Positions 2-56,082 are shown, counted from the whole stretch's first letter. The stretch is DNA of 56,082 bases, filler included, from Stramenopiles sp. TOSAG23-6 (GCA_900128565.1; 3 parts of 3 records of this genome joined end to end with filler, not necessarily neighbours in it), one strand, 5' to 3'. Numbers and translations are program-made. Notes: generated by a model from the letters alone, not told the origin.

Positions 2-2168
2 GTATTCTGTTGTGCACATGCGCAGCAGGTACAGGAATACTTGAGAAAATCGCATTTATGGAATACAGATGGTCGGGATAGCGAATTACCACCGCCTTTG
101 CACAAGCTTCCACTTGTGCGCATTATAAGTGACGAAACTAGTATGAGTGCTGGGGACGCACTGCGTGAAGTCGACCGCCGTCAAATTGTAAAGAGTGACC
201 CATTTGTATTAGTGAGTGGTGATGTGGTTAGTAATATTAATTTAAGAAACGTAGTCGAAGTTCATAAAACCAGACGTAAAAAAGATTCAAGCGCAATTAT
301 GACAATGGTTTTTAAGCCTGCGGCTCCAACGCACCCGACACGTCAACTTCACGAAGACCTTGTTATAAATATGAACTTGGAGACAAACCAAATTTTAGGT
401 TATGAAGATAACTCAGAGTGTGCCGTTGTTAATATGATGCGTGACACTTTTCGTGAGCACAGTCGAGTTTCAATTCGTCATGACTTGTTGGATTGTCATA
501 TTGATGTCTGCTCTCCCGAAGTGTTAGAACAGTTTTCAGCAAATTATGATTATCAGGATATTCGTAAGAATTATGTTCATAATGAAGTTGTTAATATTGA
601 GCTTGGTTGGAAATATTATGGGCATATTGTACGTGATAAATATGCAGCTCGCGTACAAGATCTACGAACATATGATGCTATTAGTAGAGATATCATTCAT
701 CGGTGGACATTTCCTGTAATGCCTGATTCGACTTTTGGTTTAGGTGCTAGTTACTCATACCATAGATGCGAGGGTGGTGGAGGATATTACAGGGAGCAAG
801 GTGTTTCAATTGCTAGAGGAGCTAAAATTGGAAAAGGGACTGTGCTTGGTGCTGGGTGTTCCATAGGAGAAGGAGCTTATATCAGTCAATGTGTTATGTA
901 CGTGGTTCAGCATGAATTTCAAATTTATTTATTTTTTTCGTACGAAATTGTATACCTAACATTTTTTTTTTTAACATATTTGTTCACAATACATTGGTAG
1001 GGGTTGTCTTGTCGGTGATAATGCAAATGTAAGAGGAAGTTATCTCTGGGATTCTGCAAGAATCGATGACAATGCTCAAGTTTTTGATTCGGTGATTTGT
1101 AATAGTGCTCATATTTGCAAAGATGTCATTATAAATTCTGGTTCAATTATTAGTTTTAATTGTGTTGTACGGTCTAGCATTGAAGTACCAAAGTTTACAA
1201 GGATTACTTTGATGCCGGAACAAAAAGATGAGTTTGATTCATTTGGCGATTTCGATGAAGATGTTAATACTACACAACAAAAAGTAAAAGAAACCGCTGA
1301 AACTGCAACACTTCCTGAACGTGTCAGTGGACGTATCTATACAAATAAAGAATGGGATTTTAACTTTTGTAGTGATGGTGAATCTGATAATGATGATGAT
1401 CAATTTGAAACACAATGTAGTAAAAAAACAAAGGCTTTACAAGCGACATTCATGGGAGCCGTCAAATCTCAACAACTTCGGGCACAACGATGGAACAAAT
1501 ATGATCATTCTTTGATGAAGACATTACAATTTGACAAAGAGTATAATAATAATAAACATGATAGAAACGACACTAAAGGTGATGAAGACGAAGGTGAAAG
1601 TAGATTTCGGAATGGAGTTCGCGATTATATTTTACATGGTATAGAAGAAGGTCATACATTTGATGAAATTGGAATGGAGTTAAAAAGTTTTAAACATTCT
1701 GAATTCAAAGATTTTACTGATTGTGTAGTGGCAATTGTTCCTGTGATTATCGACTTAGCAATAACAAAATATGCAGATAAAGATAAAATGCAGATACTCA
1801 AAGGCTTACAGCAAATGTTGAATGAGTATGCTCCTTTAATAAGCTTTTTCCAGGTAAACAGCGACGAGGAACCCCTCGAAGATTCAGTGTACATTGGGGC
1901 AATTTATTCATTGGAAGAATATGTTTTACATAGCAATTGCAGAGACGATATTCAATCGATGTTTGGTTTTATTCTACAATTCATGTGGGAATCTGATATT
2001 ACCACGATAGATGCAGTGACAGAATGGGCGAAGCAGCGAGAAGAAGATGACGATGACGTTCCAGAAAAGATTTTATTTTACAGTGAGAGAACACAGAAGT
2101 TTTTGGAAGAGATGAAGTCTATTAGCTCCGATGAAGAAAGCGAATACAGTGATAGCGATTCATCGTAA
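2..2168 (+). CDS. EIF2B5: Translation initiation factor eIF2B epsilon subunit (5'-partial; exons 2-897, 995-2168)
   Basis: NTP-transferase-like domain (GDALREVD, FVLVSGDVVSN), hexapeptide left-handed beta-helix and acidic W2/HEAT C-terminus. Removing 898-994 joins the two ORFs as SQCVIGRGCLVGDN. Confidence 0.93.
898..994 (+). mobile_element. Introner-like intron, GT-AT, 97 nt
   Basis: AT|GTACGT...TTCGTACGAAATTGTATACCTAAC...CACAATACAT|T. Restores the VIGRGC hexapeptide repeat. An in-frame TAG 6 nt further on would delete two repeat residues. Confidence 0.82.
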
Positions 2169-2308
2169 ACCATATAAATAAAATCTAATTACATTTTAAA
2201 AGTTTTAGAATTTATCATTGATTTTTTATTGATTTAAAGAGTGGAGTGTTTTATTTTGTTGATCTCCAAAATACCTTTTGACTTGAGGAAGGGAAGGTAG
2301 AGTAATTC

Positions 2309-3373
2309 TTAGTCAACCCAGTTTTTTCCTTCAGTATACGTCACGTTTTGGACAGCTTGAAATGCAGTAAATCCCATAGCTGTACTAGCCCCAGCTGTAC
2401 TAGAAGCAGCAAGTGCGGAAATACCTTCTTCCACACCAACAACTGGGCGAAGCCAATTGGAAGCACCAAACGAAACATCTGTCCCTACGAAGCAACCACA
2501 AGCTCCACCAATAGAAACGGACAAAGCTGCATCTGCCTTTAGATTGCCATATGAGGCATGCCCAACACCATCAAGCATATCGGAATAGAGGAAACGACCA
2601 CTGCGGAGACCTACAAAGAAAGCAAGGCCACAGCCAACTGTTGTGCCAAGAGCAGTTTGGTTAAAGGAGTAACCTGCATTAGAAAAAGCTGATACCAGTG
2701 GCTGCCAAGAAGTTCCCGAGAAAAGTGCGGCTGTTCCAAGAAGAAGACCAGTATGTATTTGTTCCTTGACATTAATCGTTTGATCAACTGCCACAGATTT
2801 GAGTGCGTAATATAAAGAATGACCAGCAAAGACACCCAAACCATCACCAATACCAGTATATAGTGCAAATTGTGCACTGTCAGCGGCAACGTTTTGCGAT
2901 TCTGCAAACGTACAAGCTGTTTGCCAACCAAAGCCAGCTGGAAATATTTTAGACACCATTACTTCTGCTGTAATGACAAAACGATCACGAAGCATCGCTG
3001 GGAATGATACCTTTTCTGATTCAGCAATAGCGTGCTTCAACATTATTTGACCTACGTCAGCTTTTAGAGATGGTTGCCGCGACAATTCATTTCGAGAAAT
3101 TGCGTGGTGCAAGGTGTGAATTTGATCGATTCCAACTTTTCGCATTGCGGATTCAAACTCTTCTTTGCTAAGAGAATTGTCTTTGTTCGTGTCAATTGAT
3201 CGAAAGAGGTTGTTTATCTCACTAGTGGTTCGAGAAAGTGTGCGTACAAGATTTGTGGCCTTTCCTTCAGACGTCTCTTCTGTTGTACTCAATCGAACGT
3301 CAGAGGAGAGAGTAGAAAATGTCGTAGTGCATCGGCGGCGTGAAGCCAAGAGCGCTTTGCGTACTAAAGCCAT
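2309..3373 (-). CDS. EF-hand-containing multi-pass membrane protein, likely organelle-targeted
   Basis: EF-hand DTNKDNSLSKEEF, Gly/Ala-rich hydrophobic helices, and an Arg/Ser-rich N-terminus from the ATG at 3373. Confidence 0.75.
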   Translation of the reverse strand: MALVRKALLASRRRCTTTFSTLSSDVRLSTTEETSEGKATNLVRTLSRTTSEINNLFRSIDTNKDNSLSKEEFESAMRKVGIDQIHTLHHAISRNELSRQPSLKADVGQIMLKHAIAESEKVSFPAMLRDRFVITAEVMVSKIFPAGFGWQTACTFAESQNVAADSAQFALYTGIGDGLGVFAGHSLYYALKSVAVDQTINVKEQIHTGLLLGTAALFSGTSWQPLVSAFSNAGYSFNQTALGTTVGCGLAFFVGLRSGRFLYSDMLDGVGHASYGNLKADAALSVSIGGACGCFVGTDVSFGASNWLRPVVGVEEGISALAASSTAGASTAMGFTAFQAVQNVTYTEGKNWVD

Positions 3374-3684
3374 TCTTTCGCAATGAATGAATAAGAGTGG
3401 TTTAAGATAACTTTGTGTTTGCAAAAATAATTATGTTTAGAAAATGAGCAAACTCGTGAAGGCAGGTACAAGTTGTTGATGTCAAAGGTACACTTTGCTA
3501 TCAAATTGCTGTTATATTCGTTCTAATTACTATCAATTTTAGCGCTGATCTCGTAACTGTTAACTTTTTGACCTTGACAACTTGTAATATAGTACGGAAG
3601 TTCCTTTAACTTTTACAATATGCAAATTTAACAACTGCCCAACTCGGGAACAAGTATTATTTTTCAGAAAAGTAGGACCACACA

Positions 3685-5900: not shown

Positions 5901-6012
5901 ATGCAACCATAGTGTTTTCTTCTTTATGAGCAAGTTTGAGATTTGTTAGATACAAAATTGTCCTAGTAGAAAAATAGTTGAAATTCCGTTGAAATTCAGA
6001 ATGAAAAGGTAC
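5901..6012 (-). mobile_element. Degenerate introner-like intron near the AIM24 3' end
   Basis: AG|GTACCTTTTCATTCTGAATTTC...AATTTTGTATCTAAC. The 3' end (GCAT or an upstream AAG) cannot be fixed from frame alone. Confidence 0.5.
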
Positions 6013-7014: not shown

Positions 7015-10000
7015 ATGACGAGTGTATCTCGTTTCTTGATTGTGATATTACTCGCCAGTTTGCTGAGTATTACCAATGCAAGTTCACAAAGTTTTGGTGA
7101 AAATAAGGACAAAACGGGAGGCGGGCTATTCGTTATTTTAACCCTCATCGTAGGAGTGATCATCCAAGCGTTTTTCGATAATGGTCATCGTGAGATACTT
7201 CCATATACAACAATCATGCTTCTTTTTGGTGGAATCCTTGGAATTTTAAATGAAGAAGGAGAATGTTTGGGTCAAAGCACGAGCTGTCAGCTTCACGGAA
7301 AACAGAGTTGCACACTTCACCACCAGTGTGACTGGAATCGATCTTTTGATTTGGGTATGCTGCAATATTCAATCGAAATTTGGACAAATATTGACCCCCA
7401 TGTACTCCTTAATTTATTTTTACCTGCACTAATTTATGTATGTTTTATTTTTTTTCAAATTCTAATTTGTTTTTCGTACGAAATTTTGTACCTAACAAAT
7501 TGAAATTGTTTTTTGAAATATTTTTCCAAAATACATGCTTCGTCACACAAAGTTGACTATCATATTTTTCATCACGTTATATATCAAGTTTTTGCACTTG
7601 CTGGCCCTGGTGTCTTAATAGCGAGTAGTTTAATTGCCACATTTTCAAAATTGGCTTTTGACTACCAATGGAATTGGAATACAGCTTTTATGTTCGGCTC
7701 AATTTTAAGTGCTACTGATCCAGTCGCAGTAGTTGCTATTTTACACGACCTGGGTGCACCTCGTAAGTTAAGCATAGTTATAGAGGCAGAATCCTTGTTT
7801 AATGATGGAACAGCATTAGTTTGTTTTTCTGTATTTGTGAAACTCCTTATAGAAGAACAGAGTAATACAACAATCTTTTCTCAAATTCCTTTTTTTCTGC
7901 AATTGGCACTAGGCGGTGCTTGTCTCGGATACTTGAGCGGTCGTATAATGGTATTCTGTCTTCACCATATTCGACATTCTGTCCAACAAGCGATTGTAAC
8001 TTTAATTTTTGCATATAGCACTCACATACTCGCTGAACAAATTGAGGTATCAGGCGTAATTGCCACAGTGTGTCTCGGTTTGGTGTATGCAACGATGGGG
8101 CGTACTAAGCTAACTGATGCTGAAAAAANGAATGAATTCTGGGAGATGTTAGAGTGGATAGCAAATACTATCATATTTAGTATAGCAGGAATGATTATGT
8201 TCCAAAGTATATTCTCACAATCTGAATATATTACGCTCAGGGACTTTTTATTATTATTAGCTTTATATGCCGCCACAAACATAATTCGCGCTATTACTCA
8301 TTTAGTTTTGTTACCCATTCTATGTACTGGGTATGGCACAACAAGAGAAGAACTTGCAATGATGTCATGGTCAGGTTTACGTGGTGCTGTTGGACTAATA
8401 TTAGGATTAATGGTCTTTAGGCGACCTAATGGAGAATACAAGGGCCTTCTATCATCCGGTATGAGCCTTGAAGAAATCGAAAAAATGAAAGCAGAGATAC
8501 TTTTTCATGTAGCAGGTATTTCTGTGCTTACACTACTTATTAACGGAACAACCGTACCATATCTAGCGAAAGCATTAGGATTATCAAAGCAATCATCAGC
8601 TTCAAAGTTCACTTATAATGTTTGGTCAATGCATGTCACTGAGGAAAATGAAGAAGAATTGACTCGGATGCGACATCATAAATTTTATAGACATGCAAAT
8701 TGGAATGTTGTTTTGCAATATTTACCAGTACTCAATGAAGAAGTGTTAGAAAAAANGNANGNAAAAATTAGATCAGAATCTATATAAAAATATTAAAAAT
8801 GGTCATCTGAAGATGCTAAATTCGAAGTATCGTAATGAGAGACTTCCGACTGTGTTACAAGACATGGCTAAATTCCCTGTTCAATGGGCATTATTTACTT
8901 CTAAAAAACAAAGGCGTCAATTTATCCGTACACATTGGGAATTAGTCATTGAGGCCAGAAAACGTGCTTTAGATATCATGCAGGCTCATTATTGGAGTCA
9001 GTTTTATGATGGATTTGTTGGCGGTGAAGCTTTAAAACTCGTAATACAGTCAAAAAATATGGCGATGGATGATGTTACAGAATATGAACATCCGCCACAT
9101 GACAACAGCAGACTTGATAAATGTGAAATCAATGACTGGCACTACCTTGAACCTCATATGATAGTTGGAAAATTTGCAAGAAAATGTAATCATGCAATGC
9201 AAAATATCATTCATAAAATTCCTTTTCTTGAAAAGTTGACAAGACATCATATGTACAATAGAATGCATTTTATAATGGATACAATGCATGTACGATTTCA
9301 TAATGAATTTCAAATGTATTGTTTTTTCGATCGAAATTCCGTANCTAANGAGTTTTTTCTTTAAATATCCTTTCACGATACATTGCTTTATTCAAGCACA
9401 CGATGAAGTAATTCATCAACTTGGGGTTCAAGAAAAAGAATCTTTAGAAAGTCTTACGTCTGCAGCCGATGAGGATACTACAAATCAACGTTCACAACTT
9501 GCCATCAAAATGCGCGTCGCTGCAAAAGATCTGGATCATATTTGTCAGGTCAAACTTCATCACATTGCACAAGAAGCATATTCAAAAGTAGGAGACCATC
9601 TTGATTTGAAACATTTACAAATATATATTGAAAAAGCGTTTCCTACATTTGAACTTGGTAATTATGAAGATTATATCAAAGTGCTTCTTTCTACAATATT
9701 ATTCGAGTCTAATTTGAAGTCTCGCCTTAATTCCAAATCATTGAAAACAGAAGATCAGAAACAATCTATTGGTAGTGACCAGCAACAAAAGCTTCAACTT
9801 TTCGATCATGAAGCATATTTGCTTCTTTCAGATTATATGCATCACGATCACCATCCAGTGTTGCTTGGCCTCGTAAAAGCTGAGTTAGAATCAGCGAGGG
9901 TACCTTTTCATTATGAAATTTTTAAAATCTATTAATTTTTTTGAATGAAATTTTGTACCTAACGATTTAGTTTTTGAATATTTTCCACAACACAGGATAA

Positions 10001-12218
10001 AGCCAATGATTTATGGAATGATTATATCGTCTCTAGTTTAGGTACATTGCGTACTATTTCTACCCAGCATGTTATTCGCCATCTTATCAAGGATGTTGGA
10101 AATCAAGTTAATCGTATATATCACGAAGGTCAAATTGATCACGCTGAAATGGAATTAATGGAAAGTGCAGTCCATGAATGCCATAGACGCTTACGCAACA
10201 AGCCACCTACCTCGGGTGCTCCAAAGAAAAAAGAGCTCTTGAGATCTGTACCATTTATGCATTACCTTGAAGAGAGCCATTCTGAATATTTTGATAATTT
10301 ATTGAGCAAAATGACCGAAGAACATTTTGATCGCGGAAGTGCTTTGCTAAAGCAAGGAGATCCGGTAAGTGGTTGTTTTCTGATTACGTGTGGCACAGCT
10401 CGTGTCATGTATCACTCTGAAACTACACCACACGATGCTCGCACTTTAATTCACGAAAAAGGAGAGGAACAAAAGAAGAAACAAAAGAAGCGCAGAGGCT
10501 TCATCGGATCATATCCAAGCGAGGTGAAGAATGTAAAGAACCACAAGTTCAGTAATGAAATCCCCGATAGTAATTTAACGGATATTCAAGTAGTTATCAG
10601 TGACAAAGATGGTTTATCACCAAGGACCTTAAAGGTTGTCACTCCAAAGCGTTCAAAACTATCACCACGAAGGAGCAATATCGAAAAGGAAGGAGGAAGA
10701 AAAGGTAGCATGTATAATTTATCGTTGCCTGAAATTGAAGAGCGGTATGGTACATCTATGTTGCAACTAGGTCCGGGCCAAATAGCTGGGTCTTTGTGTG
10801 TTATAACCCATGGACACATTTTTGCATCAATTATTGCAAATACATATTGCATTGCATATTTTATTCCTGCAAGTGAAATATGGAAGATGTTTCGTGTTGT
10901 TAGTGGCAGCATCGAAGCCGAGTGTAGAGATACAGTGACTAATGGACATCATAGGCGATCACATAATAGACTATCACATAGACTTGTCAAAGCAACAAAA
11001 TTAGTTCGAACATTGTCACAATTTGCGTTGAAATCTATGAATAAAGCTGTAGAATCCATTTCTGGAAGTTCCAGTGTTGTTGCGATGAATAAAAAAGGCG
11101 AGGAAACGACAAGAGGGCAAATAATGAAGGGGAAAGTAATCGCACGTGAAGCCCAGGCTAGGCGCATGTTGCATACTGGAAATACAACCACTGAAATCAA
11201 CGAGCAAAGGCTTCATTCACCCAATAATACAAGACATCAAATTTCAAGAACGTATTCAAATCCTATGATAATTTCTTCGCCATCACCACCAGGATCACCA
11301 ACGTCAGAACTACCTCGATCACCAAGAAGCAGATCACCAGGATCGCCAACGTCAGAACTACCTCGATCACCAAGAAGCAGATCACCAAAATTTCGTTTCA
11401 ATAATGTGTCTACCACAGAAAAGGTTATTGAAGTTAAAAAAAGTGGGAGTGCAAATAGAGCATTGAATGAACAAAGTGTATTAAATGGGGAAGATACAGA
11501 TGATTCCATCATGTCTTTGGAAAATGTTCACCACTCTGAGAAAGAAGATCAAATACTTGTTGTAGAAGAAGCTTTCTGTAAGGAAGCTGCTGTTATGGCT
11601 TCAATAATTCTTCCTCACATCAGAGATCATTTTCCTGGTCAGAGTTATGATCGTCTTCGTGAGACGTTTGCTCTTTCAGAATTACGTTGCCCAACACCAG
11701 GTATCAAGTATAGACTACATACAGCCTTTCTATTAATTACAGGAAATTTAGTAAGTGAAAATGGATATAGTCATTCACCATTAAGCTTACGACAGAAGAA
11801 AGTTTCCCATTCTATTGTTCAATTTCATTCTCCACGAAATTGTCCTAATTGGAGGCTTGGATTGCCATGGGATTGTATCTTTGGATTTGATGAGCATGGA
11901 GAACATCCGCGTATTTTACAATTGAGATATTCCAAGGGATTTCGTACAATGCCTGGAATGGTACCAATGGGAGGAATAATGAACACTAGTATGAATCGCT
12001 CACCACCATCGCAGCTGGAGAAACATTTGAAAAACTTTTCTTGTACATTTTCATCAGGAATTTAAATTGTTTATTTTTGTACCAAATTTCGTACCTAACG
12101 ATTTTTTTCCACATAATTTTTTCACAATACATCGTCTGTCCACAAAAAGAAATTTGCTTCATCGGTTCCAAGTAAAAATAGAAAAAAGAAACACCTAACG
12201 ATTAATACACAGATATGA
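7015..12218 (+). CDS. CPA1 Na+/H+ exchanger with cyclic-nucleotide-binding domain (SOS1/SLC9C-like); 4 introns, plus a probable assembly frameshift at Ns near 8756-8762
   Basis: FLPALIY, SATDPVAVVA, EAESLFNDGTA, WSGLRGAVGL, TLLINGTT; CNBD with LLKQGD..GCFLIT.GTARV. Confidence 0.88.
7438..7536 (+). mobile_element. Introner-like intron, GT-AT, 99 nt
   Basis: TAT|GTATGT...AAATACAT|GCT gives in-frame LPALIY-ASSH. Confidence 0.87.
9290..9383 (+). mobile_element. Introner-like intron, GT-AT, 94 nt
   Basis: CAT|GTACGA...CACGATACAT|TGC joins ORF 8813 to ORF 9288 in frame. Confidence 0.8.
9900..9995 (+). mobile_element. Introner-like intron, GT-AG, 96 nt
   Basis: AGG|GTACCT...CAACACAG|GAT is in frame with ORF 10047 and has the same internal motifs. 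Confidence 0.85.
11289..11387 (+). repeat. 48-bp coding tandem duplication (PGSPTSELPRSPRSRS x2)
   Basis: Direct repeat visible in DNA and protein. Confidence 0.85.
12043..12132 (+). mobile_element. Introner-like intron, GT-AT, 90 nt
   Basis: T|GTACAT...CACAATACAT|CG opens a frame to TGA at 12216-12218. Confidence 0.72.
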
Positions 12219-15878: not shown

Positions 15879-17318
15879 TCAAAGATGATCACTCGATAAA
15901 AATAAATCATTAATTTCTTTGTCTGGATCCCCAAAAAAAATATCTTCACTACTAGATTCATTGCTACTACTATTAAAGGGAGGATCATTTTTTTTGTTAT
16001 TTTTAAAATGAATCGACATATTATTATGTGTAGAGCTTGAAATACTTGGATTCATTGTATTCTCATTAACAGTAGGGTTGTGGCTATTTATATTTATTTG
16101 ACTTTTAGTATCTTTTGTGTTTTCTATGTCTTTTGATTCATTTGTTTCATTTGATTCATTTGTTTCATTTGATTCATTCGTTCCATTTGATTCATTCGAT
16201 TCATTTGTTTCATTTGATTCATTCGTTTCATTTGATTTTAGTGGGATTTCTAAAGATTTATTTTCTAATGTTTCATGGGAACTCTGAATGTTAGTATTTT
16301 GATGGACAGTTTCGTTTACAGATATTAAAGGTATAGAATCTTCTGTTCTCATTGCAACGGCTACAGCAGCAGCTGAAGAGCCAATTCCGACTCGAGGTAA
16401 TGGAGACTTTGTATCCTCCGAAACACGAAATCCTTTTTCTTTACACTTTTTGAAATGATCACTTGCGATTTCTACAATGTCAAATGTTGATAGTAATTTA
16501 GATAAGACATTTTCAGGGACTATTTTAGCTTCAACGTTTCTCGCTGCTGCGTCAATAAGCCGTTTCAACCTTGGTTTGCTCTGCTGAAGAAAATCGACAA
16601 CATCATATAGTAACTCAGTCGGTTTTTCTTTTGAATCTAGCATCTCATTTACCATATCTCCATATAATTCAGCCTGAGATTCTACAACTAATAGGTCATT
16701 GAGGAGTTTCTGATTAGCATCAGATGGAATATTTTGGACCGTTTCGCTTAGAACAGACACATTTTCAACTGGCAATGCCGATATTTCACTTTTTTTCGGA
16801 GTTGCCGATATTTCACTTTTTTTCGGAGTTGCCGATATTTCACTTTTTTTCGAAGCTACCTTGTCGTGGGTTATGCCCATATTTTCCAATCTAGAGTAAA
16901 TATCATGAAATGCTCTACGGTTATCGTTACTATATTTGTCCTGTGGTGTATCTTCTAGTGTTTCTTTCCATTTTTTGATGAGTTGCAAAGCTTTACTTTG
17001 TGCAGTTGGACCTTTAGAGCAACGGGCAACTCCCTCAATAAGAATAAGAATATCGGAATTTACTATCATAGTGTGCACTTGAGTATCAGCTTTCTCCATT
17101 AGTTTTTCGATAAGTCCAAGAGTTAGTAAAATTATATTCTCATTTCGTTGGAGTAACCGTTGTGCTACTGTACTGAGTACAAGGTCCAAATTTTGCACGT
17201 CTTCTGCAATCAAATCACAAATATTTGTTTGTGTCTTACCTGTCGCCTCAACTTCACCTGTTGTTGCACGGAGGATGAGTTCTACAATAGGCAGATCTAC
17301 ATCCCCCTCTCTTGACAT
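15879..17318 (-). CDS. VHS plus GAT domain protein (TOM1/TOL-like)
   Basis: ILRAT, NICDLI, LTLGLIEKL, KALQLIKKW (VHS); helical GAT-like region; low-complexity tail. Confidence 0.7.
   Translation of the reverse strand: MSREGDVDLPIVELILRATTGEVEATGKTQTNICDLIAEDVQNLDLVLSTVAQRLLQRNENIILLTLGLIEKLMEKADTQVHTMIVNSDILILIEGVARCSKGPTAQSKALQLIKKWKETLEDTPQDKYSNDNRRAFHDIYSRLENMGITHDKVASKKSEISATPKKSEISATPKKSEISALPVENVSVLSETVQNIPSDANQKLLNDLLVVESQAELYGDMVNEMLDSKEKPTELLYDVVDFLQQSKPRLKRLIDAAARNVEAKIVPENVLSKLLSTFDIVEIASDHFKKCKEKGFRVSEDTKSPLPRVGIGSSAAAVAVAMRTEDSIPLISVNETVHQNTNIQSSHETLENKSLEIPLKSNETNESNETNESNESNGTNESNETNESNETNESKDIENTKDTKSQININSHNPTVNENTMNPSISSSTHNNMSIHFKNNKKNDPPFNSSSNESSSEDIFFGDPDKEINDLFLSSDHL
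16135..16236 (-). repeat. 9-bp coding minisatellite (NE[ST])n
   Basis: Alternating TTTGATTCA/TTTGTTTCA units. Confidence 0.85.
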
Positions 17319-18751: not shown

Positions 18752-18804
18752 GTATGTTTTATTTTTTTCAATTTCGAATTTATTTTTCGTACGAAATTTT
18801 GTAC
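18752..18804 (+). mobile_element. 5' part of an introner-like intron, cut by the contig end
   Basis: AT|GTATGTTTT...TTTTCGTACGAAATTTTGTAC. Confidence 0.8.
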
Positions 18805-18904
18805 NNNNNNNNNNNNNNNNNNNNNNNNNNNNNNNNNNNNNNNNNNNNTTAATTAATTAANNNNNNNNNNNNNNNNNNNNNNNNNNNNNNNNNNNNNNNN
18901 NNNN
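18805..18904. other. Artificial contig linker (Ns plus TTAATTAATTAA six-frame stop)
   Basis: 100-nt N spacer with the palindromic all-frame stop motif; an identical structure is at 37553-37652. Confidence 0.95.
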
Positions 18905-18963
18905 TTTTCGTACGAAATGTTGTACCTAACGATTTTTTTTTGAAATATTTTTCCAAAATGCAT
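18905..18963 (+). mobile_element. 3' part of an introner-like intron, ending CAT
   Basis: TTTTCGTACGAAATGTTGTACCTAAC...CCAAAATGCAT|AGA. Confidence 0.75.
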
Positions 18964-19731
18964 AGACCGCAAATTATGAGAACATTTTCGGAGCCTCCTA
19001 TTCGCTTAACTCAAAATAATTGGGCAAGAAAATCAAATAGTTCAAAGAGTAAATTGAGTATTAAAAGTCCCATGAGCTTTCACGGTGCCGATCTAAAAGT
19101 AGATAACACTTTAAAGAATCCTGTAAATATCGATGAAAATGAAAGCTGGAACTCTTCACTTGCAACATGTACTGAAGTGAGTTACGTGTATGAAGATTGT
19201 AGGAGGGGTACTGGTCATGCGAAAAATCTTAAAAGTCAACGTGATTTTTTAGAGCGAATAAGAATGCGCACTTGGGTAGCTGAACCTTGGAAAACTGTTC
19301 AAATTCGATCTGGTGCATGTTTTGATCTTGTATTTGAAGTAAAAGCAAATTGTCCAATCATGTGGGATTGGAAAATTATCATTGATAATCCAAAGTTGGC
19401 GTCAATTTATCGGTTTGTTCCTTCAATGTTGACATTAGACATCAAATTTACAGTGTACTTTGAATCTGAAATCTCTGCGAGGAAAAAGGCTTTTGCTGGA
19501 AGTCCTAATCGTTCTCGGAGTTTGAGAAGTAGCAGGACATCCGTTGGTGTTGATCATGGATTTAGGATATTTCCAATAAGAAGTAAGGATCGTAACCTTG
19601 TCCGACATACTGGATGTTTTGAACCGCCTGTTGATGGAACTTTGACACTGCTTTGGGACAATATGCAAAGCGTTGTTTGGCCGAAAACAGTATCATTTCG
19701 TAGTAGACAATGCGTACAAAGTTCAAAGTAA
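18964..19731 (+). CDS. Last exon of a GOLD-domain-like protein (5'-partial)
   Basis: WDWK..DIKFTVYF..G.FEPPVDGTLTLLWDN..S...PKTVSF fits a GOLD beta-sandwich. Confidence 0.65.
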   Translation, partial: RPQIMRTFSEPPIRLTQNNWARKSNSSKSKLSIKSPMSFHGADLKVDNTLKNPVNIDENESWNSSLATCTEVSYVYEDCRRGTGHAKNLKSQRDFLERIRMRTWVAEPWKTVQIRSGACFDLVFEVKANCPIMWDWKIIIDNPKLASIYRFVPSMLTLDIKFTVYFESEISARKKAFAGSPNRSRSLRSSRTSVGVDHGFRIFPIRSKDRNLVRHTGCFEPPVDGTLTLLWDNMQSVVWPKTVSFRSRQCVQSSK

Positions 19732-19887
19732 ATATATGTTTTCTATTTGTCTATTGTAATATCAGTATGCATCATCTATTTTGTAGAGTATAGTTCTTTA
19801 AATGAGATTTTTCAAGTATAAATTATAAATTGAATGTGATTTAATACTTTTATAAAGTTTTATTGAAATTATTCAAGGAAATTATAC

Positions 19888-22800: not shown

Positions 22801-23586
22801 TTTCGACTCTTTTTCACCCTCTTTTGCAACTGATACACCATTCACAGTATTATTTGGATTAGCTACTGCTGAACTTTTCGACTCTTTTATTTCATTTTGT
22901 GGAACTGTCTTCTCCGTTTTCATGTCCTTTTCTGCTTGTAAAGAATCAACAGTGGCAAAAAAACCGCTAGATTCGCCATTGGAATTATTTGAAGGACTTG
23001 ATGTTAATACACCAATTGCATAATTACTTGTGCTACTCTTAATGCCTTTTGGTTTATCTTTACTATATTTTGTTTCAATTTCATTGGTCTCTTCAAATAC
23101 AGAAGCTTTTACACTGTCATTACTTGAAATGGCTACATCATTATCTGCTCTAGCTCCAAACTTTAATCGTACTGTAGCAAGAGCTACTTTTGCTATCGTT
23201 CGAAGACGTTGAAGAGGCTTCTTCTTTTTCTTTTTACTATTTGACGGAAGGATAATCAAATCATTTATATTTACTTCATCTTCATCACCATTAGCATATC
23301 GTACAGCAACATCTCCATCTTTACACAGTTCAACGATAGTTCCTTCTATTCTTGGGGCACTTGCATCGAACTCATCTGGAACACTCACTCTTACACCTAC
23401 TCTACACTTCAAACGAACGGCAGCGAGTGCTACGGTCGATAATGTCCGTAAACTTGAAAGCTGCAGGTTTGGCGGAGGCATATGAAAAGGCTCTGTAACT
23501 ATACCATTTTTTATTTTAATTTCTGTAGAGTTGGAAGTATTCAGTTGTTTATCAACGTCGACAAGTTTTGACTCTGCCGCTGCCAT
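19888..23586 (-). CDS. Large protein with two SH3/Tudor-like repeats, an EF-hand-like region, an RS-rich tract and ankyrin repeats (copy 1)
   Basis: GRSALHIAA, GSQPLHCAAKRG, GKTPMLLAA; duplicated G.V...C.DGDVAVRY.NGDEDEV.I.DL module. Confidence 0.82.
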   Translation of the reverse strand: MAAAESKLVDVDKQLNTSNSTEIKIKNGIVTEPFHMPPPNLQLSSLRTLSTVALAAVRLKCRVGVRVSVPDEFDASAPRIEGTIVELCKDGDVAVRYANGDEDEVNINDLIILPSNSKKKKKKPLQRLRTIAKVALATVRLKFGARADNDVAISSNDSVKASVFEETNEIETKYSKDKPKGIKSSTSNYAIGVLTSSPSNNSNGESSGFFATVDSLQAEKDMKTEKTVPQNEIKESKSSAVANPNNTVNGVSVAKEGEKESKHSALANTNSTVIDVSIAKEENSGGKKSNDSIVRDIDNKRVEKIKVGTKVSVYNEYDLNAERIIGTVVQICDDGDVAVRYSNGDEDEVSIGDLIILDEQVDFKVSNTSTESLMRHDATENIKLDHDISTRGRSTENNKLDHDISTRGRSTENIELDHDISTRDGSLSALNIIDNDNQRNENSQNKIQNSTNLKTERDDTLFSENNMDTNALNIKRIKFSQKTKRESLTFQLRRIQKELWLVENRLKLLVDQNMNHTHEELYALSLSKAAKETEEQLNALLATDIEFERQEKVKEDYCYEIGDSASVLVGSPKQPKQTNKICGDESLNSIPEAPLMPSHILETIASGWSTIVSEDGTHGASLDKAFDEIDDYFSKENNLSTVPTKHKYNQPHSRSSRSGGMSQLDKLRVRLYNKGRTTQQIWLSMNPDEDDHVSYPGFVHGLRMNGIRMDELEMKNIWSYFHTCNLGSELGASGGIDKVTWPHFQSLVSLDALHTASKQAVAMGKTTQKNYVPSSEEMRPCTAESFVLSAESFHKSKSTNSRSVSRRSRSVSRQSRSVSRRSQSPSRKSQSPSRKSQSPSRKSPSSKSPLRKSRSPHKGKKKGGILNVKWKRELYSAVSAGQAGHVHEILTRDKSRNLKSDLRSPLDEQGRSALHIAALCGSVSVAKVLFGIGVSSISIDKNGSQPLHCAAKRGQLEICKILVKHGARIESRDNYGKTPMLLAAAGGHINTAKWIASIAKQQDLHDGSRFANFLWTGDNREATALHAAAEGGHLLFIEWLLDVCELAHAQPLAWLQSCTANGMSAQNIAEYYGYVKCATWIGDQIQLKKSHLRESVQKMKQHQHEATGNIVQFTHDIETQRVKNTKVKSQVEPIKIQHDELSIGSVTALRSHFPPNASKLKDNREMERVRRRDAHNKKIKAQARQRNTKMFGSLVFNLPCPSEQRKLKAAARRRSKSTSRSPKKNDDSLPLI

Positions 23587-25609: not shown

Positions 25610-25646
25610 ATCAATATACATTCATTAATATTATAAAGAAAATAAA

Positions 25647-30032: not shown

Positions 30033-30105
30033 AACTCCGTAGCTCAGTGGTAGTAGCGACTGCTTAGTAAGCAGTAGGCCGTGGGTTCAATTCCCACCGG
30101 AGGCT
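30033..30105 (+). tRNA. tRNA-Thr(AGT)-like gene, identical second copy
   Basis: Same 73-nt sequence as 29646-29718. Confidence 0.8.
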
Positions 30106-30810: not shown

Positions 30811-30847
30811 TTTATTTTCTTTATAATATTAATGAATGTATATTGAT

Positions 30848-47798: not shown

Positions 47799-49678
47799 AT
47801 GGATAGCGTACATCGTGGCAACGCATTCTTCGTTGATGGTAAATTTGAAGAGGCTATCAAGGAGTACGATGCTGCAGCTTCTTCTCACCCGCGTTTGGCG
47901 GATGTTTTCCTAAAACGTTCAGCCGCACACGCTCAGTTACAGAATTATGAGCAGTCATTAGAGGACGCCAATAGGGCAATCCAGTTGAATGAAGCATCCA
48001 ACTATTTAAGCTTCTATCGCAAAGGTTTTGCGTGTTTCTGGTTAGATGAGTTTGAGTCAGCAAAGACGTCTTTTGAGTCTGGTCTGAAACTTTTGGAGGG
48101 TAGTACAAACAATCTTTCTAATGCGCGTGTTTCGAAAGAGTTCAAACAGTGGGTGAGTAAGTGCAATGCTGAGATTGAAGAGGAAGAAGACAGTGATAGT
48201 GATGGTAGTAGTGATGGGGTAATTGAAGAAAAAGGTATTTCTCCAAAGTTGGCCCAAAAGTCTGGTATATCTGTTTCCTCAACGTCTGACCAGATAAAGA
48301 GGCAGGTTCGTGCTGCACGTCATGAGTTTTATCAGACTCCAACGCAAGTTGTTATCACAATCTTTGCGAAAAATATAAAGAAGGAAGACGTGCGTTTTCA
48401 TCATGAATTACATATTTTTTTTTTATTCGTACGAAATTTTGTACCTAACAAATTTCGAATTTATTTTTTTTTACAATACATGTACAAGTTGATTTTACCG
48501 AAACTAATTTCAATATTGAATTTCCACTTTCAACTGGGTCTTCCTATGCGTGTACGTATTCATCATGAATTTCTAATTTATTTTTCATACGAAATTTTGT
48601 ACCTAACAAATTTTTAAAATTTTTTTTTGACTTTTTTATTTCAAAACGTTTTCATCATGAATTTCAAATTTATTTTTCATACGAAATTTTTGTAGAAAAC
48701 AAAAACGATTTCTGTTTATATTTTTTTTCATAGAAAATTTGGTACCTAACAAAAGAAAATTGTTATATTTTTTAATTTTACATGGGATTTTGATACCTTT
48801 GGTAAAATAGTTCCCGAAAAATGTACATTTCGAACCTGTGCTCCAAAAGTTGAAATAAAACTAATAAAATCTGGTGCTTTGCATGAACGTTTCCACAGTT
48901 GAATTTTTGACATAATTTTTTTTTGGTACGAAATTTTGTACCTAACAACTTTTTTACAAAAAGAATATTTTTTCACAAAACATTGGCCATGTTTAGAAGG
49001 TCATGGGATTGCTGGTGGTGCTCATGCAGTTGCAGTTACAAAAAAAGTAAATTCGGCACCGACGCCTTATGTACATTTTCATCATGATTTTTTTCCTAAT
49101 TTGTTTTCATACGAAATTTTGTACCTAACGAATTATTTTTGGACCGAAAAAAAAAAGATATTTTTTCACAGTTCATGCCTCAAAACGAGATTGGTCAAAA
49201 GTTGAGAAGGAAATTGAAAAAGAGCTCGAGGCAGAGAAACCTGAAGGAGAAGAAGCACTACAGAAATTATTCAAAGATGTTTGTTTTAATCATGAATTTT
49301 AAATTTTTTTTTTTTTTGGTAGAAAATTTTGTACCTAACGAAAAAAAAAAATATATTTTTTTTTTTAATACAGATTTACTCCAAGGCGAGCGATGAAACA
49401 AGACGTGCAATGAATAAAAGTTTTCAGACATCTGGCGGCACTGTCCTATCCACTAATTGGGATGAAGTTGGAAAAACGGATTATGAGAAAGAGAAACAAG
49501 CTCCAGATGTACCTTTTCATCATGAATTTATTAATTTATTTTTTTTTTTTTTTTGGTAAAAAAATTTTGTACCTAACAAAAAATCAAATTTTTGAAATAT
49601 TTTTTCACTATACATGGTATGCAATGGAAGAGGTATGATGGGAAAAAAGTTGAAGGTTTAAAAAAGGAAGACAAATAA
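47799..49678 (+). CDS. SGT1: SGT1 co-chaperone (TPR-CS-SGS), 7 exons
   Basis: TPRs; RHEFYQT..V.ITIFAK (CS); [20 protein letters not shown] and APDGMQWK (SGS). Confidence 0.95.
48390..48481 (+). mobile_element. Introner-like intron, GT-AT
   Basis: GAC|GTGCGT...CAATACAT|GTA gives KKEDVQVDF. Confidence 0.85.
48552..48783 (+). mobile_element. Composite introner-like intron (2-3 internal units), GT-AT, 232 nt
   Basis: T|GTACGT...TTACAT|GG gives [17 protein letters not shown]. Confidence 0.8.
48885..48983 (+). mobile_element. Introner-like intron, GA-AT
   Basis: CAT|GAACGT...CAAAACAT|TGG gives [15 protein letters not shown] (conserved end of the CS domain). Confidence 0.8.
49071..49176 (+). mobile_element. 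Introner-like intron, GT-AT (skips CAG at -5)
   Basis: TAT|GTACAT...CACAGTTCAT|GCC gives [10 protein letters not shown]. Confidence 0.87.
49279..49373 (+). mobile_element. Introner-like intron, GT-AG
   Basis: GAT|GTTTGT...AATACAG|ATT gives KLFKDIYSKA. Confidence 0.88.
49509..49615 (+). mobile_element. Introner-like intron, GT-AT
   Basis: GAT|GTACCT...CTATACAT|GGT gives APDGMQWK. Confidence 0.88.
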
Positions 49679-49749: not shown

Positions 49750-50743
49750 TTATTTTTCATCTCTTAATAAAATCAATAATTTAGAAAAACAACTTCCTCT
49801 TGATATATTTTTGTGAATGTTATTAGAGAAAAATGTTGATAGTAATTGAACACACTGATGACTCAGTTTCTGGCAAAGCATTTCAGAGTCAATGTGGGAT
49901 AATACACAAAGTAGTTCAAAACTAGCAAGTGATAACTCATATTCTACATGTGTTGGACATGTATTGTGAAAAAACACGAAATTACAAAAACAATCGTTAG
50001 GTACGAAATTTCGTACGAAAAAAAAATAAATTTGAAATTGAAAAAAAATAAAACGTACATGGAGAACGCATTACCTCAATTATAGTTGCAATGCCGTCAG
50101 TCTCGCAGAAATATGGAAATAATGAATAATTTGTATTAAGGAAAGCTTGAAGACAATTAGCAGAAGCGATTCGAAGACTACAGGGGTTTGGTTGTGTTTT
50201 CAGTATGGTAATTAAAGACAATAAAAAGGATTTTTTATCAGAAAAAATGTATAGTGAAAAAATATATCTAAAAAAAACGTTAGGTACAGAATTTGGGTGA
50301 AAACTAAAAATGAAACAAATGATAAAAATGTACATGAATGCAGATTCTTTTGTAGGTAATGCACCCAAAAGAATAAAACCATTGACACATGTAATGAGGC
50401 GTGTGAGCAATATATCACTAGATTTATATGGGCTATGTGCACAGTTGACAATGACATTTATCATCTTTAAAAGTAAACTAGTGCTATTTAGCGAGCGAAA
50501 TAGCCGCATTGTTTCTAGTTGCTGACTGCACGACACTAAAATTTCAAGTAAATGGTCAAATGGGTGAATATCTACACTAAATAACGTTTTGCATGTCATT
50601 TCAGGTAATATGTTACAACAACTACTTAGAGCAGCAGTTATTTCGCCTACGTCGACTTGGGTCTTTAGCCAAGTATCTAATTCTAAATCTAGGGCATGAT
50701 GAACGGTTGTAACTTCTTCAGAACAAGATTTTTTTAAAGTCAT
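49750..50743 (-). CDS. Hypothetical ARM/HEAT-like helical protein; GT-AT introns at 50247-50333 and 49959-50058
   Basis: Leu-rich helical sequence. Both introns carry the family motifs and give an in-frame product. Confidence 0.6.
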
Positions 50744-52875: not shown

Positions 52876-54073
52876 CTATACACACGAAAATTCAACGATA
52901 TTTTTGACACATCCGACTGCCACACTATATCTACGAGGGTGAAAATCACATTGTAACGCCTTTTGTTGGAATGTATTGTGAAAAACAATGTTTTAGTAAA
53001 AAAAAAATTAGGTACCAAATTTCGTACAAAAAAAAATTGAAAAAAAAAATCATAATGAAAATGTACATATACTTGGAAGTAAATCGTCTGAAGTTGAATT
53101 ACTATAAGCACTAGGGGATGTCTTACCCTCACGTTGTAGAACATTTTGAAGATTTCCACTATTATCAAATAAACAAACTCGATTACCATTTCCTGTGAAA
53201 GAATATTTCAAAAATTCAAAATGTTTTAGTATATTGTACGAGTTAAAATCTTTAGAAATTTAGAAATTTAAGTTTAAATTTGGTAGGAAAAAAAAAAAAC
53301 AATACATTTGAAACAAAAGATTCGAAATTTATGATGTAAAACAAACATATGTACCTGTAACAAAGAATTTATCATCATGGGACACTGAACATAAAAAGTA
53401 AAACAATATGTCAAATTTGAAATTCGTTACATATGCAATTTTTTTTACGAAAAAAAAAAATGTTACGAAATTTTTTTTACGAAAAAAAAAATTGTTACGA
53501 AATTTACGTACACTTATACTTATCGAAAATTAAATCTTGTAAATAAAGGTTTTTCAATTTAGGTCTTAAATATTCCTGTACGTTAATAGTTAATACTGGC
53601 ATATGTTCCATCCGCGCATCCCATAATTTCAAAGACATGTATTGTGAAAAAATATTTTTGTTTTTTGTTAGGTACAAAATTTTCTACCAAAAAAAAAAAA
53701 AATCCAAATTGAAAAAACTAAACATACATGTATTGTGAAAAAAAAATTCAAAAATTGTTTTTGTTTTGTTAGGTACAAAATTTCGTATGAAAAAAAAAAT
53801 TCAAAAAAAAAATTAAACATACATATAATCACGCATTAGCAATTGATGACCTGCATTGGTAAATTTAATATCGGAGATACATTCCAAAATTTCTGCGAAA
53901 AATGCATGTGATGATTTTGCCGAAGCATCTTTAAATTCTTTAACACTATTATCGCATAAGGCGGCAGTGCGCCTGTATTGTGAAAAAAAAAAATTGGTAA
54001 AAAAAAAATTGTTACAATTTTTTTTTACAAAAAAAAAAAAAAAAAAAATGGGAAAAAAAAAAATTTTTAAAAT

Positions 54074-54104
<31 letters not shown>

Positions 54105-55149
54105 TCGTGTTAGGGTTAGGGTTGGATGAAAAAGTACATATCAGCAAGTCTTACAGAACCAGTCGAAGTACTGTACGCAAAAATATGTGATTGACTAGGG
54201 TGGAACGTTGCCGCTGTAAGAACTTCAGAGAGAGATTCCATATCGGTTGGTTTCATATCGACACAAGTAAAGCAAGTATCTGAACGGTCCATATGCCATA
54301 TATTGTGAAAAAATAAATTCGAAATTCAAAAAAAACAAAAAATGTTAAGTACGAAATTTGGTACGAAAAAGAAAATAAATTTAAAATTCATGATGAAACA
54401 CATACAAACATTTACTCGTAAGTCATCGGATGACAAGAAGCTTTCGCCATCGCTACATACTGAAAGAGAATTAATATGATATGCCTATAATTGAAAAAAT
54501 ATGTCAAAATGTAAAGTTCTTTAGTTACAGAATGTTTTTGAAAAAAATTCAATACATTCAAAATTGAAAAAAGTACATGAGCGTTTGCAAATACTTTTTT
54601 CTCTGTCGTCGGGCAGTCACTGTGTGTTACACTATCCGCCACACTACTCCTATCATCTTTATTCTCAGGATGTATTTTCCAAAGTTTTATAGTTTTATCA
54701 TTAGTTGTTAGTAAGAATTGAGACCGATTCGGTCGAGGTAACCAAGTTAGGTGATTGATTCGTTCTTCAATTTCGAGGCTCCTTAAGTAGTCAAATTCTC
54801 TATTATGTGATTGAAACGCAGTATGTCTTCTATAGATCCTATTTAAATGTTTTGCTTCCCCAGTGTAGTTTTCAATCGATCCCTTTTCACCACTACAATT
54901 ATACACGTAAACACCTCCAAGGGTGTCACCTGCAGCGACGAGTTCACCACAGTTGCTATATGCTAGTGCAGATATTTCATGAGTTACTGATTCTGTGTCT
55001 GTATCCATAGAATCGCCATTTGCTCCATTTGATTGTATTAAATCTGTATTCGTACAAGCAAGAACTTGACCTAGTTGCCACTGATGTGGAGAAGTTTTAT
55101 TAGCTGGTAGGCTTACAGTACTATCGATATCCATAGCACTAGTTACCAT
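52876..55149 (-). CDS. PPP2R2: PP2A regulatory subunit B55/PR55 (WD40); introns 54485-54576 (AG), 54298-54405, 53973-54137 (AG), 53728-53822, 53637-53727, 53391-53511, 53188-53346, 52971-53066
   Basis: FQSH..EFDYLRSLEIEERIN, TNDKTIKLWKI. Splicing restores NAHAYHINS, DDLRVNVW, DMRTAALCD, RDYMSLKLWD, IFDKYKC and FHP. Confidence 0.93.
53637..53822 (-). mobile_element. Two abutting introner-like introns with a zero-length exon
   Basis: AT|GTATGT..CACAATACAT|GTATGT..CACAATACAT|G; each unit has its own TACCTAAC. Confidence 0.85.
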
Positions 55150-55899
55150 GGTCTCGTCAATCTATATTTTTCATATATGGTAATTGAATAAAAGTTAGAT
55201 AGAAAACGTCACAAAACTGCAAGAAACAAAAAGAAACAGTACACGATAATAACGATAATAGCATACAACTGTGTATCTTTCTCATATGAAAAAGGAAAAA
55301 AATGGTGGGAAACAGTCTGAGTGATAGGACAACTTACTGCAAGCATTAATTAGGTCTACAAATATTGCATACACTTTTTGGACTTAAAAAGTATGAGCTA
55401 TTATAATATAGATTGATTTTTCAAGGTTTCCGTTCAGTAATCTTTTCTATGTGAATGAGAGAAATCGACTTTCTGGATTTTCCTTATCAGAAGATGAAGC
55501 TAAAATAAGTTTATTTTCTGGATCTCGATTGAAAATTGAAAAAAACATCAAAAAAAAAAATACAAAAATTTTCGAGAGATCTCAGATTCTCATTGATGTG
55601 ATGTCTTCAAAAATTTCGACAGGTTTGTTTGCGCGCTCAGAATAAATTCCGAAATTGGAAAAACGATGACGAAAAAAAATATATGAAGATTTGAATGATG
55701 ATTGAAGAAGTATGGTCCTCAGGACTATTATATATCATCAAGGATATCTTTTAGTTGCATTTTTCAAAATCAACGATGAGAACAAAAAAAGAGTTTCGTT
55801 TCATACAAAATTCAAACGGTTGTATTTGAAAAAATCCCAACCCTAAAAAAAATATTTTTTCAAAATACCATAAAATAATTTATATTTCAAACTTAATCA

Positions 55900-56016
55900 T
55901 TAATGCTCTAATACGTAATGACTTGGATATTTCGCAATATGTTTAAGCATTTCTTTTTTTTGTTCCTTCAAGTGCTCAGGTAGGTCAGCATATACATCAT
56001 TGAACATTTCGTTAAC
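55900..56016 (-). CDS. BCKDHA: Last exon of branched-chain 2-oxoacid dehydrogenase E1 alpha
   Basis: Translates VNEMFNDVYADLPEHLKEQKKEMLKHIAKYPSHY (not in the ORF track), like the BCKDH E1-alpha C-terminus. Confidence 0.75.
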   Translation of the reverse strand, partial: VNEMFNDVYADLPEHLKEQKKEMLKHIAKYPSHYVLEH

Positions 56017-56082
56017 ATGTGTTTTGTAAAAATATTTCAAAAAAAAAAACTAAAATTTGTTAGGTACAAAATTTCGTACGAA
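56017..56082 (-). mobile_element. 3' part of an introner-like intron, ending CAT
   Basis: TTCGTACGAAATTTTGTACCTAAC...CAAAACACAT|GTT. Confidence 0.8.

Follow-up and report, generated by a model that had tools for sequence, protein, structure and literature searches.

How is a conserved gene read when the insertions that interrupt it start like ordinary introns and end in AT? The question is raised by a stretch of DNA of 56,082 nucleotides (nt) from Stramenopiles sp. TOSAG23-6 (GCA_900128565.1), a chain of contigs here called the window. A single family of elements, about 90-110 nt long and of the form GTAYGT ... TTTTGTACCTAAC ... TTTTTTCACAATACAT, interrupts genes across the whole window. Thirty complete, non-redundant introns of 87-232 nt were placed; 23 of them end in AT, six in AG and one in AA, and 29 begin with GT and one with GA. 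Comparison with homologous proteins indicates that in ABCA, eIF2B-epsilon, SGT1 and PP2A-B55 (B55) residue-exact continuity requires removal up to ...CAT. The best explanation, which we hold with slightly better than even confidence, would be that a MITE-like introner (MITE, miniature inverted-repeat transposable element) duplicated an AT target on insertion and is removed by a U2-type spliceosome through GT-AT splicing.

Census and exact removal of the elements

A repeat search returned the copies as families D1, D2, D5 and D13, with the core TTTTCGTACGAAATTTTGTACCTAAC and the common end given above. An nhmmer profile built from six seed copies gave 64 matches at E<=10, including 40 with E<0.01. 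Boundaries were placed by the family consensus alone (the GT of GTAYGT and the end of ...ACAT), and reading frames were tested afterwards. The tally of complete introns takes in three degenerate AG-ending introns of the B55 gene and omits copies cut by contig or window ends; elements in the arms of a 7172-nt inverted duplication (see below) were counted once per duplicate pair, because the duplicate is perfect. The first-pass annotation had described a repeat family of sense-oriented introns with a GTAYGT donor, and this was confirmed by the nhmmer search: all 30 complete and all five cut copies (35/35) run in the same direction as the open frames that flank them. Its count of 30 introns, mostly ending in AT, also stands, whereas its division into 25 AT, 4 AG and 1 AA became 23, 6 and 1 on recounting, because the three degenerate B55 introns were included and the cut copies omitted. 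The copies are listed below with their coordinates, strand and the evidence for placement; a slash marks a cut or junction here and in the following.

898-994 (+): eIF2B-epsilon intron GT..AT, 97 nt, AT upstream; frames, PDB adjacency
5941-6012 (-): degenerate copy near the 3' end of the AIM24 gene, 3' boundary unplaced; nhmmer E=0.0023, profile positions 1-64 only, Pfam AIM24
7438-7536 (+): Na/H-exchanger intron GT..AT, 99 nt; joins 145- and 416-codon frames
9290-9383 (+): intron GT..AT, 94 nt; joins 180- and 183-codon frames, no GT-AG option within 30 nt
9900-9995 (+): family intron GT..AG (CACAACACAG), 96 nt; joins 208- and 689-codon frames
12043-12132 (+): intron GT..AT, 90 nt, TT upstream; frames, no GT-AG alternative
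18752-18804 (+): 5' half-copy cut by the contig end, linker next; nhmmer
18905-18963 (+): 3' half-copy ending ..TGCAT, contig-cut, mirror at 37494-37552 (-); nhmmer
24690-24785 (+): intron GT..AT, 96 nt, mirror at 31672-31767 (-) in the inverted duplicate; frames
37653-37712 (+): 3' half-copy ending ..AACAT, contig-cut; nhmmer
37734-37842 (+): intron GT..AT, 109 nt, AA upstream; frame alone
37983-38074 (+): intron GT..AT, 92 nt, with an out-of-frame CAG 5 nt from its end; frames
38411-38514 (+): intron GT..AT, 104 nt; frames
38753-38850 (+): intron GT..AT, 98 nt; frames
39064-39155 (+): intron GT..AT, 92 nt, 89% identity to 7438-7536; frames
39311-39415 (+): intron GT..AA as placed, equally GT..AG after a 2-nt slide; frames
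41047-41146 (-): ABCA Walker A intron (GLLGVN/GAGKTT), GT..AT, 100 nt, CAG 5 nt before the end skipped; PDB adjacency
44627-44729 (-): ABCA intron GT..AT (..CTCAT), 103 nt; joins 398- and 1180-codon frames
48390-48481 (+): SGT1 intron 1, GT..AT, AC upstream; homologue P0007
48552-48783 (+): SGT1 intron 2, GT..AT, 232 nt, two consecutive copies; homologue P0007
48885-48983 (+): SGT1 intron 3, GA..AT as placed (AT..AC on a 2-nt slide); ALH/WP as in P0007
49071-49176 (+): SGT1 intron 4, GT..AT (..TTCAT), CAG 5 nt before the end skipped; APTPY/ASK as in P0007
49279-49373 (+): SGT1 intron 5, GT..AG, AT upstream; frames
49509-49615 (+): SGT1 intron 6, GT..AT; frames
49959-50058 (-): intron GT..AT, 100 nt, 88% identity to the copy on metagenome contig L001; frames
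50247-50333 (-): intron GT..AT, 87 nt; frames
52971-53066 (-): B55 last intron, GT..AT; spliced model, frames
53193-53354 (-): B55 intron GT..AG (ends CACAG), degenerate copy; spliced model, profile score
53385-53511 (-): B55 intron GT..AG, weakly family-like; spliced model, profile score
53637-53727 (-): B55 second tandem copy, GT..AT; spliced model, homologue profile (unit 3)
53728-53822 (-): B55 first tandem copy, GT..AT, one AT common with the next copy; spliced model, homologue profile
53973-54137 (-): B55 intron GT..AG (CACAATACAG), AT upstream, CCCTAA repeats inside; profile unit 2, /GT register best
54298-54405 (-): B55 intron GT..AT (..ATATAT), TT upstream; profile unit 1, 108-nt excision best, no GT-AG option
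54485-54576 (-): B55 intron GT..AG, AT upstream; profile unit 0, /GT register best
56017-56082 (-): 3' portion of a copy with the end ..CACAT, truncated at the edge of the window; nhmmer

Excision joins the longest open frames on both sides in 20 of the 30 cases (chance one third each). The remaining ten lie between short exons; nine of these are in SGT1 or B55, for which homologues were used, and one (37734-37842) was placed by frame alone. In the ABCA gene, the exon upstream of intron 41146-41047 (...FGLLGVN) stops at residue 1948 of 7tby_A and the downstream exon, beginning GAGKTT, starts at residue 1949; the exons are likewise adjacent on ABCA4 (1974/1975, 7lkp_A), ABCA3 (1439/1440) and ABCA7 (1829/1830). 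A cut at the CAG located 5 nt before the end of this intron would shift the frame. The eIF2B-epsilon exons, when the split codon is allowed for, abut at 379/380 of 6caj_B, 362/363 of 6i3m_G and 350/351 of 5b04_I, and use of the in-frame TAG 6 nt downstream would cost two aligned residues.

The spliced SGT1 protein aligned with its relative P0007 (49% identity) free of gaps over four junctions. When all in-frame, stop-free variants within 15 nt were scored against P0007, the reference excision length was top or tied (score 762) at three of the four junctions, and at 48552-48783 an equal-length slide of 6-8 nt reached 765 vs 762. GT-AG options scored 748 and 727 vs 762, or none existed. The spliced B55 model is one open frame. 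Against a profile made from 31 homologues, excision of 108 nt at 54405-54298 and of 186 nt at a tandem pair (53822-53637) scored best, and no GT-AG option was available within 15 nt. A search for near-identical spliced proteins gave none beyond the two mis-spliced gene models described below (SGT1 exon 1 at near or longer lengths, B55 exon 1 longer).

For the 24 introns with an end other than AG, the first downstream AG would break the frame in 16 cases and keep it in seven, and in one case there is none; eight lack any GT-AG alternative within 30 nt that is both in frame and free of stops. An AG situated between branch motif and intron end is skipped in six of the 23 AT-ending introns; in three introns (37983-38074, 41047-41146 and 49071-49176) a CAG stands 5 nt before the end. 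Wherever homologues cover the junction, rescue by a nearby AG is ruled out, and the eight introns without an alternative offer no such rescue within 30 nt. Thus far the first-pass annotation fared well: the interruption of eIF2B-epsilon, SGT1, PP2A-B55 and the ABCA Walker A motif was confirmed by structure and homologue alignments, its claim that removal must be precise and that a 3' AG is dispensable is supported by the PDB adjacencies, the P0007 scan and the B55 profile, and the view that nearby AGs are not used is supported by frame, homologue scores and the skipped CAGs.

Adjoining or nested insertions occur at two sites. The 232-nt SGT1 intron 48552-48783 consists of two copies, of which the second is without its initial bases; at 53637-53822 of B55 two full copies lie head to tail with zero exon between them. 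Such tandem copies could be removed in one step or recursively.

Outside the window, a metagenome scan with a 21-nt core motif found one contig only, L001 (3.2 kb), on which the copy AT/GTATGT...CACAATACAT/ joins frames of 178 and 46 codons. In two DNA runs, 11,052 of 99,615 (run X1) and 13,376 of 119,919 contig records (run X2) align to a 14.8-kb stretch and are concentrated on element-bearing bins, depth not being equal to copy number. The element family is very abundant.

The AT repeat and the register of the cut

A feature missed by the first-pass annotation is that AT stands directly before the GT in 21 of the 30 introns, where about 0.1 would be expected from base composition; among the AT-ending introns the fraction is 17/23. 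The restored junction reads YAT/G. Because the AT is repeated, GT..AT, TG..CA and AT..AC cuts yield one and the same messenger RNA (mRNA). In the arrangement AT[GTAYGT...CACAATAC]AT the intron equals the element plus one AT, and the element termini, ATGTAT and ATACAT, are inverted. Judged from these flanks, the simplest account of the terminal AT would be one copy of a 2-base-pair (bp) target-site duplication, perhaps extending up to CATG, and part of the splice 'rule' would therefore be the transposon's and not the spliceosome's. The two tandem copies in B55 have exactly one AT in common.

The two ATs appear to have different fates. Four of the six AT-ending introns that lack the upstream AT are one third-codon-position change away from it (GAC, GCG, GTT, TCT), and to judge from such changes the upstream AT varies the way exon sequence drifts. 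The downstream AT is either retained or turned into AG. In leave-one-out profile scores computed without the last two bases, AG-ending copies had a median of 21.3 bits vs 36.0 bits for AT-ending ones (one-sided Mann-Whitney p=0.0008, n=6 and 23). As the AG-ending copies are more diverged, the scores suggest that AT is the state at insertion and that AG is acquired later.

The repeat leaves room for AT-AC introns, a known class: if both cuts were made two bases further upstream (/ATGTAYGT ... CACAATAC/AT), a major or minor spliceosome accepting A...C termini could remove the elements. No protein test separates GT-AT from AT-AC, because the products are identical. The pattern AT..AC is found in 16 of the 23 AT-ending introns, A in first and C in last position in 19, and the GA-starting intron 48885-48983 becomes a regular AT..AC intron. 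In the other seven the pattern fails, whereas GT is retained in 22 of the same 23 (29/30 overall), and it is the upstream AT that drifts like exon, the downstream AT showing no such drift. Two AG-ending B55 members with the AT/GTAYGT context scored best in the /GT register (455.8 vs 451.0 and 452.2 bits, units 0 and 2). In the two-step spliceosomal reaction the 5' cut precedes the choice of the 3' site; since the donor context is the same, a /GT cut is indicated in the AT-ending members too, which would force ligation after AT. Taken together, AT-AC splicing is an unlikely alternative and, given that removal is spliceosomal, the GT-AT register is quite probably the correct one.

The donor consensus is GTAYGTTTTCAT as opposed to the U12-type RTATCCTT, and the ACCTAAC motif lies 31-48 nt from the intron end in 26 of the 30 introns. 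In U12 introns the branch motif, TCCTTAAC, sits some 10-15 nt upstream of the 3' end. For Physarum, a U12-type branch distance of 9-12 nt is given (bioRxiv 10.1101/2020.10.12.336362). Donor motif and branch distance rule out a U12-type reading.

Splicing signals, mechanism and other routes of removal

In an alignment of 26 copies, column conservation was 0.92 for the branch block (GTACCTAAC), 0.90 for the last 16 nt, 0.85 for exon positions -2/-1 and 0.83 for the donor, with 0.63-0.74 in the intron interior and 0.39-0.40 in the other exon flanks. The intron has A at -2 in all 26 copies and C at -3 in 24, the last base being T in 22, G in three and A in one. Pairwise identity between copies has a median of 0.71 (best pair 0.89), so the copies are not young and these blocks look selected in each host gene.

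The donor GTAYGT is of the extended U1 type, and a CTAAC-type branch motif, also claimed at first pass and confirmed here, is found in the 26 introns at the distance given above; in the other four the search pattern took another motif or none. A run of U separates branch motif and end. Donor, CTRAY branch and pyrimidine tract are those of U2-type introns, whereas the YAG, or first AG after the branch, that should complete the set is lacking in the 24 introns not ending in AG. As in introners, many copies each form an intron whose removal restores an intact conserved frame. Sense orientation, GTAYGT donor, CTAAC branch and U-tract point to excision at the RNA level by a machine of the U2 type. 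The alignment would fit recognition of CAU/CAG as the 3' site inside a longer motif; a scan for the first AG would not fit it. The single AA intron, 39311-39415, is GT-AG if both ends are slid by 2 nt.

These observations can be combined in the following mechanism. A short non-autonomous MITE-like introner (about 90-110 nt) would have spread through the genes of a low-GC protist, bringing its own donor GTAYGT, the branch site UACCUAAC and, after a U-tract, CACAAUAC. It would insert at (Y)AT(G) with duplication of the AT, the upstream AT being left in the exon and the downstream AT forming the final two intron bases; with the AT in that position, GT...AT removal would restore the reading frame to the base. 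Removal from RNA would be carried out by a U2-type spliceosome, its first step being fixed by strong donor and branch-site signals and its second joining the exons after CAU rather than YAG. The terminal U would later tend to become G, giving ordinary GT-AG introns. We infer the RNA-level removal, the GT/...AT/ chemistry, the target duplication and any change of the spliceosome from the features described above. The wider proposition is evenly balanced in our estimate: that GT-AT is the majority intron type of this lineage, that introner-made CAU ends are joined while nearby AGs are ignored, so that 3' choice would no longer be AG-based, that the 16-nt 3' block (U6-CACAAUACAU) could serve as the signal, perhaps via a re-specified U2AF-like or second-step factor, and that GT-AG introns would arise from later U-to-G change.

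Several points weigh against GT-AT splicing of a target-duplicating introner. In solved spliceosomes the last intron G pairs with the first G, and a terminal U is unexpected; passing over a CAG 5 nt upstream is without ordinary explanation. All junctions were deduced from proteins and frames. At three less conserved B55 junctions (units 4-6) the profile preferred longer or shorter products, and these junctions rest on frame for that reason. AT..AC or TG..CA cuts give identical mRNA in the 16 AT-ending introns mentioned, and intron 48885-48983, which starts with GA in the GT-AT register, yet fits AT..AC. The argument from synonymous drift (4/5 single changes) is weak on its own, and the age test has n=6 with four of the six in one gene. 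The duplication is deduced from flanks only, no empty site and no autonomous partner having been seen. Finally, the whole data set consists of one chained, amplification-type assembly and one 3.2-kb contig.

In the nonconventional introns of euglenids, hemistasiids and Amoebophrya, it is the pairing of the intron ends that would set excision, and the elements could be removed in this way if the exon AT plus GUAU paired with AUACAU. The six terminal positions are pairable in 79% of cells, a direct repeat combined with inverted ends is the layout of Amoebophrya introners (PMC7789003), and hemistasiid introns are reported to have highly pairable ends (PMC12621601). However, RNAalifold gave no consensus structure, and covariation was no greater than in shuffled alignments: 255 of 500 shuffles reached the observed pairing and just two cells were changed on both sides. 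The helix would have 5-6 A-U-rich pairs. Unlike in those systems, where borders are variable and complementarity to U1 is lacking, the ends here are uniform, with a constant GT start (in all but the GA-starting copy), a U1-type donor and a strong branch motif. As neither covariation nor an RNAalifold structure was found, a structure-guided route is not favoured and we consider it quite unlikely; element-guided excision by such pairing, the second possibility offered by the first-pass annotation, is likewise unsupported, and that annotation's interpretation is partly supported overall.

Immediately 5' of the branch motif, the element has a near-palindromic centre (CGTACGAAATTTYGTAC; columns 75-91 of alignment A1, e.g. 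7464-7480). A hairpin of 5-6 bp can form there in 72% of cells, with no compensatory change, and the near-palindrome may be a transposon relic, not an RNA structure. By RNAalifold and the shuffle test, end-pairing and central-hairpin models are both without support.

Removal at the DNA level, as for the internal eliminated sequences of ciliates, with the assembly representing an unprocessed genome, is hardly credible: a short direct AT repeat flanks most copies, one AT remaining after removal, and the ends are inverted, yet excision from DNA is blind to gene orientation and 35/35 copies are in sense, the conserved parts are RNA splicing signals, and precise loss of the element is absent among the best 15 of 781 joints in the two DNA runs. 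It is just as improbable that the elements are not removed at all, the genes being dead or the insertions an artefact of assembly or base calling, for although a perfect inverted duplicate of 7172 nt, as is typical of amplification chimeras, is present in the contig-chained assembly, and scattered N and a frame break at 8756-8762 denote local low quality, the 30 insertions, which affect at least eight genes, leave the exons open and conserved, a terminal T is found independently in 23 copies and again in the unrelated contig L001, and the two DNA runs, which may be the source data, agree letter for letter over the unique parts. This recurrence of T rules out the base-calling error (T for G) considered at first pass.

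Known systems, gene models and the rest of the window

GT-AT is documented as a splice-competent boundary pair of a rare class (PMC1557818, bioRxiv 10.1101/2020.10.12.336362), which in animals and Physarum amounts to a fraction of a percent and is mostly U12-type. The Physarum preprint also proposes a TA-duplicating transposon as a source of introns (bioRxiv 10.1101/2020.10.12.336362). In the present family, by contrast, GT-AT accounts for roughly three quarters of the introns seen; donor and branch motifs resemble those of U2 introns, and the branch-to-end distance is 31-48 nt. The phrase 'GT-AT introns' had no occurrence in our literature search.

The introns of Fritillaria borealis reportedly have mostly AG at the 5' end. 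In this species 95% of introns are non-GT/AG, and non-AG 3' ends are tied to duplicated, divergent U2AF subunits (bioRxiv 10.1101/2025.08.15.670264). The likeness is that most introns break the GT/AG rule, and divergent U2AF offers a model for recognition of CAU; the difference is that Fritillaria is an animal with both ends altered, whereas here the 5' end stays GT. Non-canonical introns make up more than 60% of the total in Amoebophrya, where no end pair dominates and the inverted repeats measure 8-20 nt (PMC7789003). It resembles the present case as a marine protist with a non-GT-AG majority and repeated families with terminal inverted repeats, in which direct repeats of 3-5 nt over the junctions make the borders ambiguous, as here; it differs in its hairpin-forming repeats and its lack of a dominant pair, in contrast to the uniform GT...AT, U2-like motifs and lack of a supported structure in the window. 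Hemistasiid diplonemids have about 97% non-canonical introns, each end pair below 12% (PMC12621601). These and the euglenid nonconventional introns are likewise non-canonical en masse, thought to be MITE-derived and complementary at their ends, but they have many end pairs, G+C-rich pairing ends and no U1 complementarity, as compared with one pair, A+T-rich ends and a U1-type donor in the present elements.

The closest likeness is to the introners of Micromonas, Aureococcus, dinoflagellates and others (PMC9860276, PMC12130899), which are multi-copy, transposon-like, intron-making families with a short target duplication, weak inverted ends and unchanged mRNA length on removal. Some introners bring a 5' site of their own, whereas their 3' site is recruited from the duplicated target (PMC9860276). 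The annotated introns in these surveys end GT/GC/GA...AG (or AC), whereas here the presumably co-opted 3' end is AT in 23/30; the main texts of both surveys mention neither MAST (marine stramenopiles) nor stramenopiles. Introners with non-canonical ends are already known, and what is new would most likely be an AT-duplicating introner dominated by GT-AT. Should transcripts bear this out, the genome would be the first we could find with one dominant non-AG boundary pair. It would also provide a simple natural system for how splicing step two picks its site, donor and branch being yeast-like and only the last base different, and a direct path from transposon insertion to canonical intron, with AT at birth and AG later, offering a live view of insertions as they mature.

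Gene prediction on such DNA is affected. The public gene models of SGT1 (P0001, 47799-49680) and B55 (P0008, 52877-55149), named GSMAST32.ASY1.ANO1.2601.1 and.2602.1 (a label that would denote a MAST-3 stramenopile), translate into introns, the frame being patched by false GT-AG splices or the model truncated, and other models of the same annotation may be similarly wrong. Gene counts, 'missing' proteins and pseudogene calls obtained from GT-AG-only predictors on such assemblies need re-checking. For two MAST-3 assemblies in a study of single-cell genomes few genes were predicted (PMC5778133); for one of them the complete protein matches did not suffice for training a gene finder, and the other had 'pseudogenised' dynein genes. 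The main text of that paper barely mentions introns and mentions neither splicing nor canonical ends. If those assemblies have introns of the present kind, GT-AG-only prediction could contribute to the gene shortfall.

The window has a G+C content of 30-40%, and the genes in it are eukaryotic: eIF2B-epsilon, AIM24, an Na/H exchanger with cNMP domain, RhoGEF, VHS, TPR, ankyrin, ABCA, SGT1 and PP2A-B55. Its contigs are chained by two linkers (18805-18904 and 37553-37652), each of which is a 12-letter spacer with stops in all frames, flanked by 44 N on either side. Each linker interrupts an element copy, so the repeat evidently breaks the assembly. The middle contig is a perfect (100%) inverted duplication of 7172 nt (18905-26076 vs 30381-37552) around a spacer of 4304 nt; it extends to both contig ends, doubles the ankyrin gene and two element copies, and has the look of a chimera made during amplification or assembly, not of a biological feature.

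Two transfer RNA matches of equal score (51.3 bits), 387 nt apart, lie in this spacer at 29648-29715 and 30035-30102 (+); they were the sole Rfam matches over the window, where no small nuclear RNA gene was found by this search. At 8756-8762 four single N occur within an A-rich run, at the frame break of the Na/H-exchanger/cNMP gene, which reflects low quality and no intron. Telomere-like CCCTAA repeats are present within the B55 intron 53973-54137 (-) (CAACCCTAACCCTAAC), and CCCTAA/TTAGGG units also occur on L001 at about 880-960, downstream of its element-bearing gene. In-frame tandem repeats with units of 9, 21 and 24 nt were observed at 16102-16255, at 21001-21198 with its mirror 35261-35438, and at 25284-25427 with its mirror 31048-31200; they sit in long open frames and give low-complexity, repetitive stretches of protein.

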